Origin: a virus
Reading direction: 5' to 3' (one strand)
IMG/VR virus record: IMGVR_UViG_3300047160_036265
Length of the DNA: 24,232 bases
In this document: positions 5,886-22,232 of the stretch, one piece after another
How positions within the stretch are numbered: position 1 is the stretch's first letter
Layout: the number at the start of each line of letters is the position of its first letter
Notes under the pieces: generated by a model
Databases searched by the model: none
What the model was told of the DNA's origin: nothing
Seen by the model: only the letters and a program-made list of their open reading frames with translations
Made by a program: the position numbers and the translations under genes

Positions 5886-6830
5886 TCAAGCCGGCTGCGA
5901 GATGAATTTCAACATATTATTGGCCATGCTACCCCACGCCGAACCGCCGAAACGCAGGCATCGCTCCAAGAGCCAGATGCGGGTTTCGTGAAGACCGGGG
6001 CTGAAAATAAAGAAGTCCTCGTCGTGGCCAAGGCCACAGTAACGCAGGGCCTCAGCCACGTCAAGACACGGGCCTATATTTTCGGGCATGGGGCGGTCCT
6101 TGCAGTATTCCACAAGGTTGAGGAAGAAACGTATCCAGTTCTTGACATGGATGGGCAGGAACGTGCCTTCGGGCAGGCGAAGCTCAAGCGTCTTGCGACT
6201 CCAGCGCTTTCGTCGCAGCCCGGTAGCGTAATTCATGAAGTTGACGGCGACCCGCCGCTCCGGGTTTTCAAAAACGCAGATGTCCGCCGGGCATACCAGT
6301 TCCCACATCTCAAGGGCGGTATATCGGCCCTCCCGACTATCCAGGGGGAACACGCTGCGCAATGACCGGCAATAGGGGTTGCTGCTGCGATGGCGGGGCA
6401 CACAACCGAACAGAAAAGGCTCGATCTTGAGCCAGTGGGCGGCAAAAACCCCGACCTGAGCAGGTACAAAGTCGCTCACGTCGGCGTGGACGTGCAGGCC
6501 GCAGTTTTCATTGACCTGGACCCCATATTCATTCAACCGGCAGGCAACCTCGGAAATGTGAAAAATATCTGCCAGGCCGGCTGCCTTGTACGAGGCTACC
6601 TCGTAACCGTGGTCCAAACCCTTTCCCTTGGGACCGCAGGTGGAATCCGTCTTGATGTGCCAATGGCGGTTGCCGTGCGTTTGCCCCCAATCGGTAACTA
6701 CGGCGCTCCGGTGCGAATGCTTGATGACCACGCTCCATATTTCATGGCGAGTGATCGTATTACTGGCCTCAAGCTCTACCCCGAAAGGTCGAACCGAATC
6801 GAACTTCCGATATTTGGTCCCTCGGTACAT
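5886..6830 (-). CDS. amidoligase-family enzyme (putative amidoligase, glutamine-synthetase-like fold)
   Basis: The N-terminal FGVELE, the central WHIKTDSTCGP..GYEVAS and the CGLHVHADV motif match the Amidoligase_2 pattern. Confidence 0.65.
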   Translation of the reverse strand: MYRGTKYRKFDSVRPFGVELEASNTITRHEIWSVVIKHSHRSAVVTDWGQTHGNRHWHIKTDSTCGPKGKGLDHGYEVASYKAAGLADIFHISEVACRLNEYGVQVNENCGLHVHADVSDFVPAQVGVFAAHWLKIEPFLFGCVPRHRSSNPYCRSLRSVFPLDSREGRYTALEMWELVCPADICVFENPERRVAVNFMNYATGLRRKRWSRKTLELRLPEGTFLPIHVKNWIRFFLNLVEYCKDRPMPENIGPCLDVAEALRYCGLGHDEDFFIFSPGLHETRIWLLERCLRFGGSAWGSMANNMLKFISQPA

Positions 6831-7291: not shown

Positions 7292-7305
7292 CCTTTCTAA
7301 TTAAG
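7292..7305 (-). promoter_or_regulatory. recurring upstream element CTTAATTAGAAAGG (minus-strand sense), copy 1
   Basis: The same 14-mer recurs at ~17349–17362 upstream of GroES, and an 11-mer core AATTAGAAAGG lies at 2370–2380 upstream of the SIMPL gene. In each case it sits 5–9 nt before the ATG. Confidence 0.4.
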
Positions 7306-10195
7306 CTAGTATTATCGGGTTGGTTGTACTCGACGGCGCTGGCGGGAATATTGGGCTAATATCCTGCCGTGGCGTCTGTTGAGGATTCTCCAACGCTGAT
7401 ATATTAACGGCGAAGAGGGGGTTTTTGGCCCAATCGGGGGAAGTAAAAAGCTCCAGGTTGTCGTAAAGAAGGCTCAGGTCCACGCGCAGGTTGTGCTTGG
7501 TGATAAAGGTCAGATCGTTGACGTTGAATTTGAACCCGAAGTTCAACCCTTCCCCTGGCATATTGGCGTCGGCGCAGATGGTATCAGGCGGGAAGCCGGC
7601 GATCATCCGTGTCTCAAAAAACTCGCCACTGGCAGGATTCCGCCTGGTCACGAGGAAAGAAAACCGCCAGAGCGGGGAACCGATATGGAGGCCACCAAAA
7701 AAGTCGGTGCAGGCCCACTCGAACAATACCATCCACAAGTCCGGGGTGCCATCCCCGGCCACCCCTCGCAAGTGCGTGTTCGACAGATAGGATTTTGAGG
7801 TATTGCTGTAGAACAGCGTGACCGGGTTCGGCACCGTCAGGCCGTTGCGCACCAGGAAATTGGTGAGATTCACCGCCCGGCCCAAATCGTGGCTCACCTG
7901 GAGCTTGTACGGCAGGCCAAGGCAGCCACAATCGTTAGGCACGAAGGCCGTCACTGGTGGGATCAGCGGTGCCGGTGTGCCGTTGTAAACCGGCTCCATG
8001 CTCACCAGCGTTCCATGACCACCCCACATGGAAATATATTGGGCTTTCACAGCCAGGGTCGGCTGCCCAAAGGCGTTCCCCCCAAAGAATGATGGCGGGG
8101 CGATTCTAGGCGTCACCTGGGCCGTCCCAAAGGTTTCTGCGGAGGGTATACCCGTAGGATTGACGTTGTAATCCACCAACGGCGTAACCTTCGTCTTGGC
8201 TTTTTTGGTAGGGGGACCAATACTCGCCGTGCCACCCATCTTCAGATCGCTGTGCTTCGCTCCCTTTGAACCTCTTTCCGGGGTGTATTGCCGGCCAGAA
8301 CGTAACCTGGCGGAACCGCCCAGGCGGATGGTTCCGGTGGCTTTCCCCCGGTAACTGGTGGAGACGGCCTCCGTAGCCCCAGCGAAATGGATTGGCCCGC
8401 CACCCTCATATTGCTGGTGAGAGGACTTCACTTTTGAGTCACCCCCGACAAGGAGGTTGACAGGCCCCTGGCCGTCAGGGATGTACTGATAATGGGAGGA
8501 CCGGGCCTTGGCGCGACCACCAAACTTCACACCACCCTGAGCATCCTGAGCGAATGCCGTGGCGACAGCAGCGCTGGGTATTCTAAAAGCAATGGCGCTG
8601 CCGCTCAGATGGATGTTGCCAGAGCCGGTATAACTCAAGAAGGTGTCGATGACCGTCATCGCCATTCCCATGCCGATGCGGGCATTGGTTTGCAAACAAA
8701 ACTGCTTGCAATTCGCTGTCTGGCAGAAGGGCACGTCCGTTAAGGTATTGCAGTTGGTATCAATCAGGCCAGCGTCCTGTTGCTGCTGGGCGATGACAGG
8801 ATTCACCGGCACGGAGAACTTGCTCATCCTTGAGATTTGCCAGACAAAACCAGTTTGGGCGACTTTGAGGCAGGCGTCATCCGGCGTTGTGGCCGGGACA
8901 ACCTGGACGGTGAATTGGGGGCATTGCTGGTCGATGGGTCGTCCCGACTGGTTCATGATTGGCGGCATCCCGCTCGTGTCCAGCGGCGCTGTCGGGCAGC
9001 CCGCAGTCGGCGTGTCGCACAACCCCTCGATCCGAAACCAGTACAGCGGGAGATGGCCAATGTTATATTCCACGTTGAGAGACACGTCGAAGGAGGCATT
9101 GACGTTGTACAAGACGGGGAGAGTGACACCCCACTGGACGCGCACCCCTGCCGTGCCGCCCGTGTGGGTCGTTCCCGCACCCGTGTATGTATATTGCTGA
9201 ACAGCATGGGGAATGCCAAAATGCTCCCCGCTGGGAATGCCGGGAGGGGACACAATAACGCCCACGAAAAGCGTGGCTGTAGCTCCCACAGTAGAACCAG
9301 CGACCAACGAGGCAGAGGCAGCGTAGATGGCTTTTGCCTTCGCTGCCTGGGAGGATACGGCGGACAAATTCGCTGCCGCCTGGTGAGTAACCCCAGGCTG
9401 GCTAATCAACGAGGCGCTACCCTGGATGTTGCTTGCCCCAACGATAATCTTGGGCATCACCAGGAAATAAGTCCTGATGGGTTGCGGTGGGGCGATAAAG
9501 GCATAGGGATTGGTATAAAGGTGCAATATTTCAATCGGGTTGAGCGCCCGATTGTATATCATGCAGTTGTCAATTTGTCCGTTGAACGAACTGCTTCCTA
9601 TTCCATGTCCGTTGCCAACCCCACAGAAAGATAGGTAGTCATCCTCGAATGCCGTCACGCCCGGCGCTGCCGTGGTTGCTGAGCGGATGCCATCAACATA
9701 GACGGAAACCGTTTGAGCCACGGCATCATATACGCCCACCACTTGATGCCACACCCCGTCGTTGACAGATTGGGTACTGGTAGCGGTTTTGGCCCCGCCC
9801 AACCAGACCATGAAACTGACCTGCCCACCGCTTTGCAATTGAAGGCCAAGTTCCTGTGTAGTACCGTTATACATGAGGAGCCAAGGAGCCGCCCCTCCCA
9901 CACTGGTCTTCACCCACATGAAGAAGGTCTTGCTGCTGGGTGTCGTGTAAAAACCTGTTGGGATCGTGACGTAGGTGCAGGTCAAGGCCGGACCTAACTT
10001 GCCCGCAGCCCAGGTGGGGCCGGTGATTATCCCGTTGAACGATTTTTCCGAGAGGTCAGTGAGGGTTGTGCCGCCGCCCTCGTTGAAAAGCCAGCAGCCT
10101 ACCAGACCGCTGGCAAGATCGTGGCCACGGAGTATCTGTGCGCCGAGCGGGGGTTTGATTTGACCGTATTTGCGATAGGGAGGACAGGCGAGCAT
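7301..10195 (-). CDS. tail fibre / baseplate protein with N-terminal Laminin-G_3 (ConA-like lectin) domain
   Basis: The N-terminal LamG signature is present (W.FNEGGGTTLTDLS..NGIITGPTWAAGKLG.AL......VWHQVVGVYDA..QTVSVYVDG). The remaining ~700 aa are G/T/S/A-rich with a fibre-like composition. Confidence 0.75.
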   Translation of the reverse strand: MLACPPYRKYGQIKPPLGAQILRGHDLASGLVGCWLFNEGGGTTLTDLSEKSFNGIITGPTWAAGKLGPALTCTYVTIPTGFYTTPSSKTFFMWVKTSVGGAAPWLLMYNGTTQELGLQLQSGGQVSFMVWLGGAKTATSTQSVNDGVWHQVVGVYDAVAQTVSVYVDGIRSATTAAPGVTAFEDDYLSFCGVGNGHGIGSSSFNGQIDNCMIYNRALNPIEILHLYTNPYAFIAPPQPIRTYFLVMPKIIVGASNIQGSASLISQPGVTHQAAANLSAVSSQAAKAKAIYAASASLVAGSTVGATATLFVGVIVSPPGIPSGEHFGIPHAVQQYTYTGAGTTHTGGTAGVRVQWGVTLPVLYNVNASFDVSLNVEYNIGHLPLYWFRIEGLCDTPTAGCPTAPLDTSGMPPIMNQSGRPIDQQCPQFTVQVVPATTPDDACLKVAQTGFVWQISRMSKFSVPVNPVIAQQQQDAGLIDTNCNTLTDVPFCQTANCKQFCLQTNARIGMGMAMTVIDTFLSYTGSGNIHLSGSAIAFRIPSAAVATAFAQDAQGGVKFGGRAKARSSHYQYIPDGQGPVNLLVGGDSKVKSSHQQYEGGGPIHFAGATEAVSTSYRGKATGTIRLGGSARLRSGRQYTPERGSKGAKHSDLKMGGTASIGPPTKKAKTKVTPLVDYNVNPTGIPSAETFGTAQVTPRIAPPSFFGGNAFGQPTLAVKAQYISMWGGHGTLVSMEPVYNGTPAPLIPPVTAFVPNDCGCLGLPYKLQVSHDLGRAVNLTNFLVRNGLTVPNPVTLFYSNTSKSYLSNTHLRGVAGDGTPDLWMVLFEWACTDFFGGLHIGSPLWRFSFLVTRRNPASGEFFETRMIAGFPPDTICADANMPGEGLNFGFKFNVNDLTFITKHNLRVDLSLLYDNLELFTSPDWAKNPLFAVNISALENPQQTPRQDISPIFPPAPSSTTNPIILA

Positions 10196-11127: not shown

Positions 11128-11862
11128 TTATGCGTCCAGCTTTTCCAGAATTGCGCCGACCAAGGGGTGGCGAACAATAGAGGAAGGCCCAAACGTCACC
11201 ACGCCGACGCCCGGCACGGCCTCCAGGCGGGCCACCACGTCCATCAGCCCAATCTCCTGGGTCCGCAGGTCGCTTTGGCTGGGATCGCCGGTTACAATAA
11301 TCTTGCTGTTGGCCCCGAAGCGACTCAGGAAGAGCTTTAGCTGCATTTTGGTGGCATTCTGCGCCTCATCAAAGATGCACACGGCATTGTCAAACGTGCG
11401 ACCCCGCATGTACGCGATGGGGGCAACTTCAATACAGCGATTCAATATATCCCGCTGTGGACCTTCCCGACCGCAGAGCTTGTCGATGCAGTCATAAAGG
11501 GGCAACATATAGGGATTCACCTTTTCATCGAAGGTTCCTGGGAGGAACCCCAGGCTTTCGCCGGCTTCCACGATGGGGCGGGTCAGGATGATCTTCTTGC
11601 GGGACTTGGACAGAACCTCGTTGATGGCAAAGGCGGCTGCCAGGTGCGTCTTGCCGCAGCCCGCCGGCCCCAGCAGGAACAGAACGTCGTGTTGCTCGAA
11701 GCCGGCCCAGGCTAGTTTTTGTGATGAGTTCAAGAATTCCAGGTGAAAGGAGCGCTTGGTGGGACTGGTTGATTTGACCATGAGTTTATGTAGTACGAGC
11801 GGCGCATAAAATGCCCCTGCATCTGGTGATGCAGGGGCAATCTCCAGGGGCCGAATCGACAT
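11128..11862 (-). CDS. phoH: PhoH-like ATPase
   Basis: The Walker A motif is GPAGCGKT, and FLPG, AYMRGRT and IIVTGDPSQ(S)D are also present. The ORF track starts at a TTG at 11868, and the first ATG is at 11862. Confidence 0.9.
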   Translation of the reverse strand: MSIRPLEIAPASPDAGAFYAPLVLHKLMVKSTSPTKRSFHLEFLNSSQKLAWAGFEQHDVLFLLGPAGCGKTHLAAAFAINEVLSKSRKKIILTRPIVEAGESLGFLPGTFDEKVNPYMLPLYDCIDKLCGREGPQRDILNRCIEVAPIAYMRGRTFDNAVCIFDEAQNATKMQLKLFLSRFGANSKIIVTGDPSQSDLRTQEIGLMDVVARLEAVPGVGVVTFGPSSIVRHPLVGAILEKLDA

Positions 11863-11868
11863 CCACAA

Positions 11869-15509: not shown

Positions 15510-15959
15510 TTAGAGATGTTTCTGCACCCACTTCAGGTAGGCTTCGTAAATAGGCATACCCAGGAGAACATCACCGTGCCGCAAGATCAAACGGTTGGGA
15601 TGATGCCAGCCCGGCACCAGGACACCGATGCCCTGGTCTACTCCCACCACGCTGGACGCTACCAGCAAAGCGGTGGCCGAACTGCGACTAACGCCAGCAT
15701 GACAGCAAATCAACAGCTTCTCACGGCCCCTGGCCCAATCCAACATCTCCTGAACGTGTTCGATAGTCGGACAGTCGGGATTTGAGGCGTCCGTGGTGTC
15801 AACAAACCTCATGTGCAGATAGTCGTGGGCGAGCGTGGGCACATAAGACGGGAGCGACCAGTTAGGGTCGGTAATGATGATGGCGTCCAACTGGTTGGGC
15901 CGCTGGGAAAGCGCTGCCTGACAGGTAGGATTGCAGTGACCGCCGATTTGTATTTCCAT
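15510..15959 (-). CDS. Cys-based protein tyrosine/dual-specificity phosphatase (CX5R)
   Basis: The P-loop is CHAGVSRS (HCxxGxxRS) with an appropriate upstream Asp-containing region, and the protein is about 150 aa. Confidence 0.8.
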   Translation of the reverse strand: MEIQIGGHCNPTCQAALSQRPNQLDAIIITDPNWSLPSYVPTLAHDYLHMRFVDTTDASNPDCPTIEHVQEMLDWARGREKLLICCHAGVSRSSATALLVASSVVGVDQGIGVLVPGWHHPNRLILRHGDVLLGMPIYEAYLKWVQKHL

Positions 15960-15962
15960 ATG

Positions 15963-17018
15963 TTATATTCCCATCTTTTTGGCAAAGTCTTGGCGCTTCG
16001 GGGTCACATGATCCTTCTCAAGCCCCCGCAACTTATTTAGCACGTCCAGATAATCTGGACACAATTCAACGGGCGACTCCACCTTCACCGTGGCGACAAT
16101 ATCGCCCATGTGCAATGGACTGCGGATGTCAGGCAAACCCCGGCCCTTCAAGCGGAAGCGAGTGCCCGTTTGCGTTCCTGCGGGAATCTTTACCTTGATG
16201 CCGGCATCCAGCGTCGGCAACTCGATCTCGTCCCCCAGAACGACCTGGGTGTAGGAAACCGGGATGTCGCAGAACAAATCCCGGCCCTCACGTTTGAAGA
16301 TGGGATGTTCCTTGATGAGAACGACTACAAAGAGGTCGCCCGTGCGGCTGCCGATCTTGCCGTCCTCACCCTCGCCAGCCACCCGGACTTGCATTCCGTT
16401 GTCGATGCCCTGGGGGATTTGAATATCCAGGGCCTTCTCAACAAAGCCGCCAAAGCCAGCGCCGGCGCACTCTTCACAGCGGTCAATATGCGACTTGCCG
16501 CTGCCCTTGCAGACGGTGCATTGCATGGTGAACTGGAAGGGGGAACTGTCGATCTTGGCCCCGAACCCCGAACCGCCACAGGCCGGGCAGGCAACAAAAC
16601 TGCTATAGCCCTTGCCCTCGCAGGCATAACAGCGCTGACGCTTCTTGACGACGATGCGACGGGTGCAGCCCTTAATAATATCCATGAGGTCTACTTCGAC
16701 CCGAACCTGGATATTTCGGCCTCTTGCCTCGCCACCCCCAAAGAACTCCTCGAATATGCTTGTAAAGTCCTGAGCGGGTCGCCTCCTGCGACCCCGTGGT
16801 TGCGCATGGTGAGCGGTCCTGCCGTCGTAGTGAGAACGGTTGATCGGGTCGGTCAAGACATCGTAGGCTTCCTGAACCCTCTTAAACTGTTCCTCAGCGC
16901 TTTTATCACCTGGGTTGCGGTCGGGGTGATACTTTAGTGCGTTGCGACGATAGGCTTTCTTGATTTCCTCATCCGTGGCGGTGCGTGGTACACCCAAAGT
17001 CTCATAGTAATCCATCAC
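15963..17018 (-). CDS. dnaJ: molecular chaperone DnaJ (type I: J domain, G/F region, 4x CxxCxGxG zinc finger, C-terminal domain)
   Basis: The J domain is YYETLGV…[10 protein letters not shown], and the zinc-finger repeats are [24 protein letters not shown] and CEECAGAG. The track starts at GTG (17018), and the ATG at 17015 overlaps the GroES stop (TGATG). Confidence 0.9.
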
Positions 17019-17344
17019 TCCTCAACAAGAACGGCCTTGATGCTGTGCGGCTCCATGAGAACCCGTTCGCGTTCGATCTTGTCGTAGTTGGGAGTCGGCA
17101 CACCGCCGCCCGAAACCACCACCCGGTCGCCCACGTCGAAGCCCCAATCCTCTTTCTTGAGGGACGGGCCGACCGCACGCACATAACCCTGGTACTCCAG
17201 ACCGTCACGCTTGTTGCCGACGCTGAAGCGGGTATTCAGAAGCTCCTGCTGTGTCAGAAGCTCGACCAAAACCTGAGAGCCACATGGCTTGATGTCCCTG
17301 ATATAAGGGACGAGAGGTTCGTCACTGCCGATGATCTTTGACAT
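17015..17344 (-). CDS. groES: GroES/Cpn10-like co-chaperonin (110 aa from internal ATG of the 147-aa ORF)
   Basis: [20 protein letters not shown]…GYVRAVGPS…[10 protein letters not shown]…[17 protein letters not shown] aligns with GroES, including the mobile-loop region. It is translationally coupled to dnaJ, and the conserved AATTAGAAAGG motif lies upstream. Confidence 0.65.
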
Positions 17345-17358
17345 ACTTTCCTTTCTAA

Positions 17359-17748
17359 TTAAGTTGTTTGCGCATCGTTCAGTTGAAACGTATGCCCTGA
17401 ACTGGCCTGAATCTGGATTCCGGCCCCCTGCAATGTCATGCCGTCCGCCGAATGCCATGTTACCAGGCTGGGTTCATAGCCAATGCCACTTATCATGCTC
17501 GTCGTAGCGATCATGCTGGGCGATACATTGGTCTGCAAACCCTCCGGGTAGGGCGTATACCTCATGCCCGGCGGCGTCTTGGGAACCTTGGCCGCTTGTT
17601 CAGCAACATACTCATCAACAATCTTGGCCACTGTGGAATCGCACAAATCGGCGTACCCAAAGCAGCCTTCCTCGTAGGCCCGCTTCAAGAGGGCCACGAG
17701 ATCATCCTTCTCTATATAAACCAACACACTGTCAATTTCCATGTTCAT
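17359..17748 (-). CDS. hypothetical protein (129 aa)
   Basis: This ATG ORF has a GGAG upstream and a 17-nt overlap with the stop of the ALDH fragment. Confidence 0.45.
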   Translation of the reverse strand: MNMEIDSVLVYIEKDDLVALLKRAYEEGCFGYADLCDSTVAKIVDEYVAEQAAKVPKTPPGMRYTPYPEGLQTNVSPSMIATTSMISGIGYEPSLVTWHSADGMTLQGAGIQIQASSGHTFQLNDAQTT

Positions 17749-18490
17749 TATTTAAGCTCCAACGCTTTGCTGACCTTACGATGACATCGCAGGTCTTGTG
17801 CCGAGAGTCGGCACACACTCGGCAGATGGAGCGGCCTACCTCAGCACTGCCGGTAAAATAAATGTGGTCCACGTTATCCAGGGCAAGGGCATGGCCGACT
17901 TCGCCATTGCCGTGAATCATGTTGAAGACGCCTGGGGGAAAACCGGCCTCATTATAAAGCTCAGCTATCATTTGCCCGGTCACGGGCGTTTCCTCACTCG
18001 GCTTGAATATTACCGTGTTGCCCTCCACAAGAGCAGGAGCAACACCACAAGCACCACCAATAGCAAACGGATAATTCCAAGGAGCAATAATCGCCACGGC
18101 ACCTTTGGGTTTTCGGAAGACATACGCACCACGCTCCGCAAAATCTCGGCCCTTGCCAAACGAGAACTTCATCAAGTGCAATGCCTCGGTGACTTCGGTT
18201 TTACTTTCATTCAGGTTCCTGCCCGTTTCCAGGGAGATTGCCTTGACGATCTTATCGAAATCCCGTTTGACCAATTGGGCCAGGGTAACAAAGTATTCAG
18301 CCCGTTTCACCCGGTTGACTTCGTGCCATTTGGGAAAGGCCCGGCGTGCGGCAGCCACCGCTTCCGCCACTTCCTCCGACGTGGATGATGGGAACAGGCC
18401 GATTTCTTCCTCGGTGGCGGGGTTGCGGGAGGGGAAGTCCGGGCGGTGGGGGCAGAAGTCACCGTCAATATAATTCATGCCCACATACAT
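17732..18490 (-). pseudogene. aldehyde dehydrogenase (ALDH superfamily) N-terminal/NAD-binding half only, lacking the catalytic half
   Basis: From MYVGMNYIDGDF the sequence matches ALDH (NPATEE.IG, PWNYPF, GNTVIFKPSEETP, GFPPGVFN, FTGSAEVGR). Homology ends right after FTGS, well before the catalytic Cys/Glu and the ELGGK motif. The 88 codons the track places upstream lack homology. Confidence 0.55.
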
Positions 18491-18500
18491 GCGTTTCCCC

Positions 18501-18839
18501 CTACATGCTAAAACTTGAACCGCAACCGCAGGTCGTCTTGGCGTTGGGGTTCTCGAACTTGAAACCACGCTTATCCAGGGTTTCCACGAAGTCAATGACG
18601 GTGCCTGGGAGATACATGGCGGAACGCTTGTCGATAGCGAATTGCAGGCCATTGATCTCCTCAACCGTGTCCACTTTTTCGTTGAAGTTCTCATCCAGGT
18701 TGAAGGCCCACTGGAAACCGCTGCATCCGCCACCACGAACGCCCACCCGCACATAAGTGGTCTTCGGGTCCATGTTCTGATCTTCCATAATGCGCTTGAT
18801 CTCGGCGGCAGCCGTATCGGTGAGAGTAACTGTAGCCAT
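18501..18839 (-). CDS. A-type iron-sulfur cluster carrier (IscA/ErpA/HesB family)
   Basis: The protein is 112 aa with the conserved Cys triad (…GGGCSGF… and C-terminal CGCGSSF). A strong AGGAGG Shine-Dalgarno lies 5 nt upstream. Confidence 0.85.
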   Translation of the reverse strand: MATVTLTDTAAAEIKRIMEDQNMDPKTTYVRVGVRGGGCSGFQWAFNLDENFNEKVDTVEEINGLQFAIDKRSAMYLPGTVIDFVETLDKRGFKFENPNAKTTCGCGSSFSM

Positions 18840-18860: not shown

Positions 18861-20069
18861 TCACGCCCAATAACCTATGAAATAGCACTTGCCGTCTTTC
18901 TCGCCCACGATAACAGGAGTGATACACCGTTTCTTTATAAGAGTTAGGTCCAACGCTTTCTTGGCCTCCTCGATGCTATCGAAAGACAAGATGTTTCCGT
19001 TATCGTCCACGAACCGTGGGTCTTTCTTGGGATACGCCACGCCCGGCACAATGACGCCATAATGGTCAAACACCGGCTTGCCATTGGCATCCGGGAAGTT
19101 TTCCGTCAGGTCGATAATTTCCTTCACCGTCTGGGAAGCGGCAGGCCAGAACTCATGGAGGGGGTACACGCGAGGTTCATAGAGCAAGGGCGTGGGTTCG
19201 GGGTGCCGCAACACCAAGCCGCCACCCTCGACAAAGAAGTTGTATCCCTTGAAGTGACGAGGTTCGACCACAATACGATATTCCCTGGCGTTGGAGAACT
19301 CGGCCAGCAAAAATGGCTGGTGCATATTGTAGTCCAGGCTCTTGGCCAATATGACCGCTGCACTCGTCATTGTCACCCGGTTAAAGCCATAATAGCTCTC
19401 GTCCACCTGCTGGCGGAAGGCTTCCACCGTCTTCATGATTTCGGAGTGCATGTCGGTGAGGCCCAGGTCCAGATAACGCTTGGCCTTCTTCTCGACCCTC
19501 GCCAGTTCATCCTGGTACGCCATGTCGTAGCGGATGAACTTACTGAAGCTGGAGGGTTGTGCGGACCAGACCTCATCACCCTTCTTGCACAGGCTCCGCA
19601 GGTCAATACATTGCATTCGCTTCCTGTTACGAACCTTCTCCCGGTCTTCGGGGGCCTTGAGAAAGCGGACGTGCAGGCGATTGACGAAGGGGCTGTCGAT
19701 GCGGCGCAGAACGTCCTTGGGCAGTTCTTTGGATAAGACCTTCCAGAGAAAAGGCCCAACGGAGTTATAACGCTCGCGTTCGCAATACTCGGCCACCACC
19801 AGCAACTCCTCGCACTCGTTGGCGAAAGCGCTATCAAAGGCCAGCCAACCGTCAAAGGCGGTTCCCAGGTCAGGGTGGGTGAAATCCACCACCGTGGTGA
19901 AAGCGTGCAACTTGCCGAACAGGGAACCCAGGGCGTGTTCGCCCCGTTCCTCCGGGCAGGCCGCTATCGCAGCCATAACCCGATGGGCTTCTTTTGATGG
20001 CACTGCGCCCTCGCGTCTCGTACCAAGCCTCCTGAGTATTTCCTTGTTAAGCTCCCTTGCATCGTCCAT
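18861..20069 (-). CDS. hypothetical protein (402 aa)
   Basis: This long ATG ORF overlaps the IF3 stop by 23 nt and has no recognisable motif. Confidence 0.55.
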   Translation of the reverse strand: MDDARELNKEILRRLGTRREGAVPSKEAHRVMAAIAACPEERGEHALGSLFGKLHAFTTVVDFTHPDLGTAFDGWLAFDSAFANECEELLVVAEYCERERYNSVGPFLWKVLSKELPKDVLRRIDSPFVNRLHVRFLKAPEDREKVRNRKRMQCIDLRSLCKKGDEVWSAQPSSFSKFIRYDMAYQDELARVEKKAKRYLDLGLTDMHSEIMKTVEAFRQQVDESYYGFNRVTMTSAAVILAKSLDYNMHQPFLLAEFSNAREYRIVVEPRHFKGYNFFVEGGGLVLRHPEPTPLLYEPRVYPLHEFWPAASQTVKEIIDLTENFPDANGKPVFDHYGVIVPGVAYPKKDPRFVDDNGNILSFDSIEEAKKALDLTLIKKRCITPVIVGEKDGKCYFIGYWA

Positions 20070-20595
20070 TTTCTACTTCCTGCCTCGGTATTATACGACA
20101 GACCAACTTGTTCCCTTCTATTTTAGGCGGGCGTTCTGCCGCAGCTATGTCCTTCAGGTCAGCCAATATCTTATTGACGACGTTAAACCCCTGTTCCTTG
20201 TGGGCAATTTCCCGATTCTTATATTGCAAATTCAACTGGACCAGATTGCCCTTTTCCAAGAAAGCACGCGCCGCCTTGGACTTGGTTTGAATATCATGGT
20301 CGGCAATCGCAGGCCGCAGACGAATCTCCTTGATCTGCACGCTCGCCTCACGCTGTTTGCGTTCCTGTTCCTTCCGCTTTATCTTCTGTTCGTATCTAAA
20401 CTTGCCATAGTCCATAATGGAACAGACCGGGGGGTTGGCGTGGGCAGCGATCTCCACCAAGTCGAGGCCCGCATCCTGCGCTATCCTTCGTGCTTTGTCA
20501 ATGGGCATAATACCAAGTTGGTTGCCGTCTTGTGTTACCCGAACGACGGCGGCACGAATTTGGAAATTCACACGGGCATATTTATTCTGTTGCAT
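20047..20595 (-). CDS. infC: translation initiation factor IF-3
   Basis: The N-domain (RVNFQIRAAVVRVTQDGNQLGI…AQDAGLDLVEIAA.ANPPVCSIMDYGKFRYEQ) and the C-domain (IKEIRLRPAIADHDIQTK…FLEKGN.V…REIAHKEQG) match bacterial IF3 along its length. Its ATG overlaps the decarboxylase stop (TAATG). Confidence 0.85.
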   Translation of the reverse strand: MQQNKYARVNFQIRAAVVRVTQDGNQLGIMPIDKARRIAQDAGLDLVEIAAHANPPVCSIMDYGKFRYEQKIKRKEQERKQREASVQIKEIRLRPAIADHDIQTKSKAARAFLEKGNLVQLNLQYKNREIAHKEQGFNVVNKILADLKDIAAAERPPKIEGNKLVCRIIPRQEVENGRCKGA

Positions 20596-22232
20596 TATTT
20601 GACTCTCTTAGCGTAAGTTTCTGCTAATCTCCTTAAAGCATTGGAAGTGTCCTTCTGATCTACGACAACATTTATCACACATAAAGTGTCGCCGGCCAAA
20701 GCTTCACGGACGGCTATATCAAGCTCGCCCTCGGTTTCCACCCGGAAGCCCTTGCCTCCACCGATCACATCAGTGATCTTGTGGTAATTCCAGTCACGAA
20801 TATTGTTGAAGGGACCGTCGAGCATGGCCCGTTCGGTCGCATAACCCTTGTTATTGAGTACAAACACTATCGGCTTGAGCTTATGCTCCAGTATGGTACT
20901 AAGCTCGGTGCAGGTCATCTGAAAGGCCCCATCCCCCACCAGCACAATCGGGCGCACGTCGGGCTTGGCCAGGGCCACGGCCAGAGCGCCAGGAATGGCG
21001 AAACCCATGCTGCTGTAGAAGGCGGGGCACATAAAGCAGTGCTGAGAGACAGCCAACTGGAACGCCCCAAACAAGCTCTCGCCAATGTCGGCCACGATGG
21101 CAAAGTCGGGCTTGGCCAGCAGGGAATTGATCTTGTCCACAAAGCGGGCAATTGTCAGTTTCGCCTCGGCAACCGCTGTATATTTCTCGGTCGGCTTGGT
21201 CACATAGCTGGGGATAGGGTGCTTGTGCAGGTCGGCCTTGAACAGCGTATTGCAAAAGTCCCGGAAGCGCACCTGCTTGAAGGTGTGGTTCTTGATTTTC
21301 AAGCCCTCGACGGAGCAGGAAATGACGTTGCTGGGGTCGAACCGCACCGGCGAAAAACCGCACATCAGGTCCGTCACCATCTCGCCCAGGATCAGGATGC
21401 AGTCCGAGTTTTCAACGTACTCCTTGACCACATCACTGCTCATGGTCCCGGCATAAACACCCAGGAAAAGGCGATGCTTTTCGTCCACCACGCTCTTGCT
21501 GAGCAACGTAGTGGCCACCGGAATGCCATGCTTGTCGGCAAAGCGGATCAACTCGTTGCCCAGGTTGAAGCGTGACACCTGGACACCGGCCAGAATGATC
21601 GGTTTCTTGGCGTCGTCCAGCCAGGTGAAAACTTCCTTCAGGGCTTCGCGCAGACTGATGGGGTCCGTTTCGGGGGCGGTGGGCGTACCCTGATGATACA
21701 CGTCGTATTTGATGGGCTTGTGGGCCACGTCCCTGGGCAGTTCAATGTAAACAGGCTGCTTGTGGTGGTGCAACTTCTCCAGGGCCATGTCAATCTTGTA
21801 GCCGGCGGTCTGGGCGTCATCGAGGACCACGGAGCAGCAGGTTATATTTTCAAAAATCTTGAGTTGGTTGTCAAAGCTGCGAACCATGTGGTGCAGCATA
21901 AAGCCTTCGTCGCGCTCCTTGACCCCTGGCGAACCACTTATCAAGAGGACCGGCGACTTCTCGGCATAGGCACCGGCGATGGCATTGCACAGTTTCAAGG
22001 CACCGACGTTGTAGGTGGTCACGACGCAGCCCAGGCCCGTGATGCGGGCGTAGGCGTCGGCGGCGAAGCCGGCGTGACTCTCATCGGTATTGTTGATGAG
22101 CTTGATCTTCTTGCTCTCGGAGAGCTTCTTGAGGAAATGAAGGATGTAGTCGCCTGGAACTGTGAAGGTATGCTTGAGTCCGGCGTTTTCTAACCTTTCC
22201 ACCAAGAAATCGGTAACGCTTGGCATGTTCAC
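20595..22232 (-). CDS. thiamine-diphosphate-dependent 2-keto-acid decarboxylase (pyruvate/indolepyruvate decarboxylase family)
   Basis: The sequence aligns with PDC/IPDC over its full length. The N-terminal Pyr domain is FTVPGDYILHFL, and the TPP-binding motif is GDGAFQMTCTELSTILEHKLKPIVFVLNNKGYATER. The track begins at GTG (22232) and the first ATG is at 22226. Confidence 0.9.
   Translation of the reverse strand: MNMPSVTDFLVERLENAGLKHTFTVPGDYILHFLKKLSESKKIKLINNTDESHAGFAADAYARITGLGCVVTTYNVGALKLCNAIAGAYAEKSPVLLISGSPGVKERDEGFMLHHMVRSFDNQLKIFENITCCSVVLDDAQTAGYKIDMALEKLHHHKQPVYIELPRDVAHKPIKYDVYHQGTPTAPETDPISLREALKEVFTWLDDAKKPIILAGVQVSRFNLGNELIRFADKHGIPVATTLLSKSVVDEKHRLFLGVYAGTMSSDVVKEYVENSDCILILGEMVTDLMCGFSPVRFDPSNVISCSVEGLKIKNHTFKQVRFRDFCNTLFKADLHKHPIPSYVTKPTEKYTAVAEAKLTIARFVDKINSLLAKPDFAIVADIGESLFGAFQLAVSQHCFMCPAFYSSMGFAIPGALAVALAKPDVRPIVLVGDGAFQMTCTELSTILEHKLKPIVFVLNNKGYATERAMLDGPFNNIRDWNYHKITDVIGGGKGFRVETEGELDIAVREALAGDTLCVINVVVDQKDTSNALRRLAETYAKRVK

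Follow-up and report, generated by a model that had tools for sequence, protein, structure and literature searches.

The analysed window, a stretch of 24,232 nucleotides of virus record IMGVR_UViG_3300047160_036265, carries a gene for a truncated aldehyde dehydrogenase (ALDH) of 252 amino acids, which is the subject of this report. The gene lies in a tight co-directional block on the minus strand, encoding dCMP deaminase, a 2-keto-acid decarboxylase, IF3, an unknown protein of 402 amino acids (p402), an A-type iron-sulfur (Fe-S) carrier (erpA), the ALDH fragment, a protein of 129 amino acids (p129), a GroES-like protein, DnaJ, a Cys-phosphatase-like protein, and dUTPase. The window represents 24 kb of a genome of roughly 670 kb. 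The identical 252-amino-acid protein was found on a 669,797-bp JGI contig, and the nearest GenBank record to the window is LR756511.1, a 595-kb uncultured huge phage, indicating that the window is part of a soil-type huge phage genome. Neither the window genome nor the truncated ALDH form was matched in IMG/VR.

The original prediction described this gene as half an ALDH ending at the boundary between the NAD-binding and catalytic domains, and the searches agree with it. The Pfam Aldedh model (PF00171) matched residues 106 to 319 of a 340-amino-acid open reading frame (ORF) over profile positions 8 to 229 of 461 (E = 5e-59). By tblastn, residues 13 to 253 of the 501-amino-acid ALDH of LR756511.1 aligned to window positions 18481..17789 with 54% identity (E = 1e-73). 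The FTGS motif occupies residues 212 to 215 of the 252-amino-acid protein, and the homology stops about 20 residues later, at Cys234 (KTC). In the alignment with full-length ALDHs of the family, the last homologous residues (ADSRHKTC) end 3 residues before the catalytic general-base Glu. The relatives continue with SCEMGSKS, which contains this Glu (Glu268), whereas the window protein continues with DVIVRSAKRWSLNNEHGN and then stops. Residue equivalents are numbered as in ALDH2, and the offset was checked through the ALDH1A1 match (window residue 232 = ALDH1A1 residue 264). The motifs of the nucleotide site are retained: PWNYP (Asn169 equivalent), FKPSEE (Lys192 and Glu195 equivalents), HGNGEVG, and FTGSAEVG (Gly245/Gly250). 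The protein thus has the residues that define the NAD(P)-binding Rossmann domain of the ALDH superfamily.

The catalytic Cys/Glu half is missing, as had been proposed. Glu268 of the ELGGK motif (CEMGSKS in this clade) is replaced by DVIVRS, and the protein ends before the GQxC motif with the nucleophile Cys302. Regular expressions for the motifs of Glu268, Cys302, and Glu399 and for the C-terminal motifs had no match anywhere in the window in any of the six frames. No second ALDH match was found in the window with the LR756511.1 ALDH as the query, the next best tblastn match having an E value of 0.3. The length of 252 amino acids falls short of the usual 450 to 500, the oligomerisation hairpin is 9 amino acids shorter, and the C-terminal strand is absent. 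The absence of Glu268, Cys302, the catalytic domain, and the C-terminal oligomerisation strand indicates that the protein does not carry out aldehyde oxidation; the JGI name 'aldehyde dehydrogenase (NAD+)' overstates its function. The ORF that stands where the C-terminal half would be, p129, had been called unrelated to ALDH, and it gave no alignment to the ALDH family hidden Markov model (HMM) with all filters off. A resemblance noted by eye between p129 and the catalytic domain (VLVYIEKDD...C.S and AVIVFEDAD...GQRC) was rejected, since neither the family HMM nor tblastn returned anything.

The start of the ALDH gene was placed at 18490 by three independent gene callers. The 88 codons upstream of this ATG overlap erpA in another frame, and in the sister lineage L003, which also has a short ALDH, the same frame is open for just 4 codons. 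The upstream extension therefore appears to be an accident of the window sequence and is probably not translated, as suspected earlier.

Features of the ALDH locus in the window, with Nei-Gojobori estimates of synonymous (dS) and nonsynonymous (dN) divergence between the window and L003
Feature	Position	Strand	Remarks	dS	dN	dN/dS
Thiamine pyrophosphate (TPP)-dependent 2-keto-acid decarboxylase	20595..22232	-	Pfam TPP_enzyme_N, _M, _C; likely start ATG 22226	0.78	0.03	0.03
IF3	20047..20595	-	Member of co-directional block	0.60	0.05	0.08
p402, 402-aa unknown protein	18861..20069	-	No match in Pfam, PHROG, or PADLOC	1.41	0.14	0.10
A-type Fe-S carrier (IscA/ErpA family), 112 aa	18501..18839	-	Pfam and NCBIfam matches; AGGAGG upstream	0.73	0.03	0.045
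Intergenic spacer	18491..18500	-	Shine-Dalgarno-like GGGGGA ahead of the ALDH ATG; GGGGGAG in L003			
Truncated ALDH ORF, 252 aa	17732..18490	-	ATG 18490, stop TGA 17734..17732; NAD(P)-binding Rossmann domain only; product contains the peptide stretch DVIVRSAKRWSL	0.62	0.10	0.162
Stretch matching full-length ALDHs, residues 4-234	17789..18481	-	tblastn with LR756511.1 ALDH; family alignment			
9-codon deletion site	18145..18146	-	Alignments against all full-length relatives; L003 lacks 17 codons			
New 18-residue tail DVIVRSAKRWSLNNEHGN and stop	17732..17788	-	Takes the place of the Glu268-bearing strand			
p129, unrelated 129-aa ORF	17359..17748	-	Located where the ALDH C-terminal half would be; 17-nt overlap with the ALDH stop	0.82	0.11	0.13
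GroES-like protein			Member of co-directional block	0.56	0.03	0.06

A half gene of this kind could also result from a sequencing or assembly frameshift or from an alternative genetic code, and such artefacts do occur in unrelated contigs: the end of L012 is an Illumina adapter, and an in-frame TAA occurs in L013. For the window this explanation is refuted by the data. Over 1.6 kb surrounding the gene, the DNA shows 100% identity in ERZ27257208, ERZ27257282, ERZ27257246, ERZ27257286, and JGI 3300031954 (contigs L002, L005, and L006-L009), and the identical 252-amino-acid protein was called in JGI, ENA, and Logan assemblies (Logan SRR8847350), so that at least five independent assemblies agree. 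The same junction is present in a lineage that is about 18% divergent in DNA. The search for the C-terminal half in another frame found none in the 24 kb and no ALDH similarity past the junction in any frame, and the adjacent genes are full length under code 11.

The divergent lineage is that of L003, and its short form (P0002) is 238 amino acids long with 81% identity to the window protein over aligned residues. P0002 is found in the same gene order on L003, L004, L094, and L097, and the lineage is represented on 11 contigs in all. A 28,890-bp contig of this lineage is in ERZ27275469. Sliding segments of 90 nt that pass over the junction show an even identity of the window to L003 (0.78 to 0.93). 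This uniform divergence rules out a recent recombination that spread the junction between the two lineages, indicating that the truncation is older than their split.

The comparison with related phages showed where a full-length gene is retained. Pairwise identities of IF3, p402, erpA, p129, and the GroES-like protein group the contigs as ((window, L003), (L095, L096)), with L014, L010, L011, and LR756511.1 outside. An ALDH gene lies directly after erpA in L010, L011, L014, and L003. In L014 (IMGVR_UViG_3300013121_000017) it encodes a complete protein of 487 amino acids with all catalytic motifs, and in L010 and L011 it extends past the catalytic Cys, the contigs ending inside the gene. In LR756511.1 (region L001) the 501-amino-acid ALDH is encoded about 3.3 kb downstream of erpA, at L001 5965-7470. 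No ALDH remnants were found in the spacers between erpA and p129 of L095 and L096 at E values up to 1. The relatives thus give a series from a full-length ALDH, through a truncation at the domain boundary that selection has preserved in the lineages of the window and L003, to the lack of an ALDH in the sister clade. Homologues of p129 were found only in L003, L095, and L096; p129 had no match in Pfam, PHROG, NCBIfam, or PADLOC, and its structure prediction was uninformative, with a predicted local distance difference test score (pLDDT) of 40.

The dN/dS ratio of the ALDH fragment between the window and L003 has a bootstrap 95% confidence interval of 0.105 to 0.241 and differs from neutrality with a Fisher P value of 1.4e-19. 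Although 122 of 714 aligned nucleotides differ, no stop codon has arisen, an outcome with a probability of 0.024 under simulated random substitution; the other two frames contain 8 to 14 stops. The ORF is open in both lineages and its indels are in frame. Polymorphism within the L003 lineage comprises 8 synonymous and 3 nonsynonymous changes. The low dN/dS, the open frame, and the mostly synonymous polymorphism together reject a neutrally decaying pseudogene, for which a dN/dS of about 1 would be expected. Purifying selection has therefore acted on the half-protein ever since it was truncated, about as strongly as on p129 and p402 and less strongly than on the housekeeping-type genes.

The AlphaFold2 (AF2) model of the 252-amino-acid protein had a mean pLDDT of 90.3 and a predicted template modelling (TM) score of 0.88, and it was weak only at residues 117-123, the shortened hairpin, where pLDDT fell below 50, and at the last 12 residues. 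A five-stranded Rossmann sheet is predicted, in which residues 233-238 (TCDVIV) form the final strand. Foldseek returned ALDHs only, with TM scores of 0.83 to 0.86 by query and about 0.45 by target, indicating that the fragment is half of an ALDH. The only PHROG match of the fragment was to phrog_15577, a family without an assigned function, and in PADLOC there was no match for the ALDH fragment, p129, or p402.

The constraint on the fragment has been relaxed or has shifted, and changes are found in parts of the N-terminal half that are otherwise conserved. At the position of ALDH2 Trp177, a residue of the substrate tunnel lining, the Trp of the family has been replaced by Cys in the window protein and by Tyr in L003. 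The hairpin has the family-wide consensus FGxGRxPxGExxxSExxEKD and is 9 residues shorter in the window and 17 in L003; the 9-residue deletion in the window takes the first strand of the hairpin (family xPxGExxxS). In the ALDH domain scheme, which includes an oligomerisation domain (PMC8160307), the shortened hairpin would correspond to the N-terminal part of that domain, approximately residues 140-158 by our mapping. These losses are what would be expected if catalysis and oligomerisation had become irrelevant and the fold, and probably the nucleotide site, were still needed.

The explanation favoured here, with modest confidence, is that the ALDH fragment has been kept as a stand-alone NAD(P)-binding domain that is translated but catalytically dead. 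The protein would be translated, would fold as a soluble domain, and would owe its value to the binding of NAD(P)(H) or a related nucleotide. The ancestral phage gene would have encoded a full-length ALDH and would have followed erpA closely, in one block with the TPP-dependent 2-keto-acid decarboxylase. A single deletion or replacement may then have truncated it where the NAD(P)-binding domain meets the catalytic domain. The product would be a 252-amino-acid stand-alone Rossmann domain with its nucleotide-binding motifs, in which the short new tail (DVIV...) may substitute for the final beta strand of the sheet. Fixation of the truncated gene preceded the divergence of the window lineage and L003. 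Afterwards its frame stayed open, its ribosome-binding site was kept, and it evolved under purifying selection, and the parts relevant only to catalysis or oligomerisation, namely the hairpin and the Trp177 equivalent, were lost.

Several observations weigh against this explanation. Of 60 columns in the N-terminal half with at least 90% conservation among the 46 family members that are not truncated, 10 are changed in the window protein and 7, with 2 more gapped, in P0002, compared with 4 or fewer in the others. Identity to the L014 ALDH is 41 to 42% in the truncated forms and 50 to 52% in other members; identity to the LR756511.1 ALDH is 56% and, in other references, about 62%. The truncated forms thus evolve faster than any full-length relative. 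In L003 the nucleotide-binding motifs are themselves affected, with FTGT instead of FTGS and EGG instead of EVG. The confidence of the AF2 model stems from the alignment of full-length homologues and is no proof that the half-domain is stable alone. The short form is present in only two lineages within a collection of 5.8 billion proteins. The sister clade of L095 and L096 has lost the ALDH completely, indicating that the gene is dispensable.

The complete loss in L095 and L096 and the faster change at family-invariant sites would also fit a functionless relic heading for the same deletion, in which the apparent constraint reflects the cost of a toxic or misfolded product or a truncation too recent to have decayed. 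The progressive in-frame deletions in the hairpin (9 amino acids in the window, 17 in L003) and a dN/dS 2 to 5 times that of the decarboxylase, erpA, GroES-like, and IF3 genes point in this direction as well. Such a relic is possible and is considered clearly less probable than a retained domain, because a dN/dS of 0.16 at a dS of 0.62 is far from neutral, neither lineage has a stop or frameshift, the Shine-Dalgarno sequence and the tail DVIVRS are conserved, and recent polymorphism is mostly synonymous. In addition, p129 and p402, which are presumed to be functional, have similar dN/dS values. The original prediction had left open whether the gene is decaying or repurposed for NAD binding only; with the same short form in L003 and the low dN/dS, repurposing fits better and decay less. 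A related genome with this short form had been named beforehand as grounds for refutation, and L003 provides it.

Other roles for the fragment can be envisaged. A split enzyme, with a catalytic half encoded elsewhere in the genome and two polypeptides forming an active ALDH, is very improbable. Natural split enzymes exist and the inspected DNA covers 24 kb of the genome, but no C-terminal half is present in the window and, as weak evidence, no protein of the 669,797-bp contig was among the best 120 matches to an ALDH C-terminal half. The Glu268 strand has been substituted rather than relocated, and the loss of the hairpin and the substrate-tunnel Trp would not be expected if catalysis were kept. 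Scarcely more credible is a modulator of host or phage ALDH that pairs with full-length subunits, with a dominant-negative effect or by structural mimicry. The extra Rossmann domain of ALDH16 imitates a partner subunit in such a manner. The best PDB sequence match of the fragment is ALDH16 (6mvr/6mvu), whose C-terminal pseudo-Rossmann domain is a weak second match, and for ALDH16 a structural role of a non-functional cofactor-binding domain has been described (PMC8160307). However, the canonical interface of ALDH subunits involves the hairpin and the C-terminal strand, the former shortened and the latter absent in the window protein, and no partner was identified. It is unlikely, although a little less so, that the free Rossmann domain was recruited specifically as a nucleotide-binding protein, for example one that buffers, senses, or soaks up NAD(H) or molecules derived from NAD, such as ADP-ribose-type signals, in infection. 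If true, this would be a new route from a broken metabolic gene to a phage ligand-binding effector.

Compared with known systems, the retained domain is closest to the full-length phage ALDHs near erpA. It shares with them the homologous N-terminal 234 residues (41% identity to L014 and 56% to LR756511.1), the Rossmann fold, the PWN, KPSE, GxGxxG, and FTGS motifs, and the position after erpA. In contrast to full-length ALDHs (PF00171, about 490 amino acids), its 252 amino acids lack EExFGP in addition to Glu268, Cys302, the catalytic domain, and the C-terminal strand, and the hairpin and Trp177 equivalent are altered. Like the C-terminal pseudo-Rossmann domain of ALDH16 (Loktanella, 6MVR/6MVU; PMC8160307), it is an ALDH-derived Rossmann domain with no catalytic domain or enzymatic role of its own. 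The ALDH16 domain, however, is fused behind a complete ALDH in the same polypeptide, whereas the window domain is free-standing and keeps its nucleotide motifs; sequence similarity between the two is marginal (E = 0.013). Loss of essential parts from a host-like metabolic gene and its complete absence from a sister clade are shared with degraded phage auxiliary metabolic genes, but unlike phage pseudogenes the window gene has no stops or frameshifts and its dN/dS is not near 1. The window ALDH is a lineage-restricted form of a well-known enzyme family and more than a simple pseudogene. The locus offers a dated three-stage dismantling of a phage auxiliary metabolic gene in otherwise syntenic genomes, and it illustrates that a 'half enzyme' in a metagenomic phage genome is not necessarily an assembly error or a dead pseudogene. 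Nucleotide binding by the free Rossmann domain, provided that it had a biological effect, would make this gene a case of natural domain salvage.

The new tail has no similarity to ALDH by tblastn or the family HMM. The sequence DVIVRSxKRWSL is common to the tails of the window protein and L003, where the junction reads KTC-DVIVRSGKRWSL. The last 6 codons of the window gene are not shared with L003 and overlap the start of p129. The window ALDH stop sits 17 nt inside p129 (17732-17748); in L003 a 2-nt indel puts a TAA 3 nt ahead of the p129 ATG, in the same frame. The boundary of the ALDH fragment and p129 thus has no signal for fusion or frameshifting that is conserved between the window and L003. 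The segment between the ALDH and GroES-like genes differs in each clade, placing the 3' breakpoint in a variable segment. In L095 (1732-1833) and L096 (4897-4998), a conserved 33-codon hydrophobic ORF (MSPEE[KR]RM[VI]VVYLWRLL...ATR) lies between erpA and the p129 homologue and is not an ORF in the window. An origin of the tail as a remnant of this ORF was unsupported, as 13% and 36% of shuffles reached the observed score. An HNH endonuclease 3' of the L014 ALDH was considered as the cause of the deletion and rejected for lack of Pfam support. In a scan for promoters and terminators, the number of sites was not above that in shuffled sequence, and no terminator-like site was found on the coding (minus) strand.

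The decarboxylase gave its best NCBIfam match to TIGR03394 (indolepyruvate/phenylpyruvate decarboxylase), with 342 bits against a cutoff of 554.5. It is thus probably a 2-keto-acid decarboxylase-type enzyme to which the models assign no particular substrate. The gene is also present in L003, L096, L014, and LR756511.1. A two-step module converting keto acid to aldehyde to acid had been proposed for the decarboxylase and the ALDH. In both L014 and LR756511.1 the decarboxylase gene is accompanied nearby by a gene for a full-length ALDH, indicating that the pairing is probably ancestral; a two-step route would then have been broken in the window lineage. The two genes are not an obligate pair, since L096 has kept a decarboxylase with 82% amino acid identity although it has no ALDH, and L010 and L011 have an ALDH but no decarboxylase within 8 kb upstream. 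The decarboxylase does not depend on the phage ALDH and is very strongly constrained, as judged from its dN/dS.

The erpA gene matched Pfam Fe-S_biosyn (E = 4e-19) and TIGR00049 (114.1 bits against a cutoff of 58.8), and Cys39, Cys104, and Cys106 (C-x(n)-C-G-C) are invariant in 5 relatives, as in A-type carriers. The score of 106.7 with the ErpA equivalog model was below the cutoff of 117, and the subfamily was not assigned. The predicted IscA/ErpA-type carrier with a strong Shine-Dalgarno sequence was thus borne out. The accompanying view that such carriers are rarely phage-encoded was not, as at least 583 IMG/VR stretches hold a relative and PHROG 17776 was matched with an E value of 5e-31; iscA is listed among common phage proteins (PMC8190135). 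The feature that sets this clade apart is a conserved gene order, IF3 - p402 - erpA - ALDH. The order IF3 - p402-type gene (about 290 to 400 amino acids) - erpA is kept in all related huge-phage contigs that span the trio (L001, L010, L011, L014, L003, and L096), as a conserved module joining a translation factor and an Fe-S carrier. The C terminus of p402 has a conserved GEKDGKC[YF] motif.

The protein matches listed all spanned 164 to 441 amino acids, or about 0.65 to 1.75 times the query length, which points to a length filter in the search. None of the other short ALDHs inspected was accepted as an independent truncation. P0009 runs into an Illumina adapter, the ends of P0003 and P0005 lie about 50 nt from the ends of their contigs, and P0011 is split by an in-frame TAA; none of these is comparable to the window. 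The adapter at the end of contig L012 occupies positions 7829-7875 (AGATCGGAAGAGCACACGTCTGAACTCCAGTCAC), and the L010 and L011 contigs stop about 50 nt after homology is lost. The ALDH breaks in L010, L011, and L012 are assembly artefacts that create false 'short ALDH' database proteins. In L013 (7001-8503; ENA ERZ23496258 scaffold_145), an ALDH of the same clade is broken by one TAA (…DLGG*SSVASAFKLSGQRC…) into ORFs of 267 and 230 amino acids, next to genes for a glyoxalase, an aldolase, and a dehydrogenase. A nonsense mutation, an error in sequencing, or recoding could account for this TAA.

The cellular ALDHs nearest to the phage clade, with about 50 to 54% identity (P0067, P0166, P0205, P0212, and P0214), carry NCBI names of Gemmataceae and Pirellulales, which hints at Planctomycetota as the host or gene donor.

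Downstream of p129, the minus strand of the window encodes a chaperone pair at 15963-17347, the GroES-like protein followed by a DnaJ with J, Zn-finger, and C-terminal domains. The GroES-like protein has a weak Cpn10 match (E = 0.002, below the cutoff), yet it is 91 to 95% conserved across the window, L003, L095, and L096. The Cys-phosphatase-like protein (CCHAGVSRS) follows DnaJ at 15510-15959. Further minus-strand cargo of the window comprises PhoH (11128-11868), a 964-amino-acid laminin-G/ConA-like protein (7301-10195), a putative amidoligase (5886-6830), a SIMPL/DUF541 protein (1643-2362), and an NAD-dependent epimerase/GDP-mannose dehydratase-like protein (87-1115).

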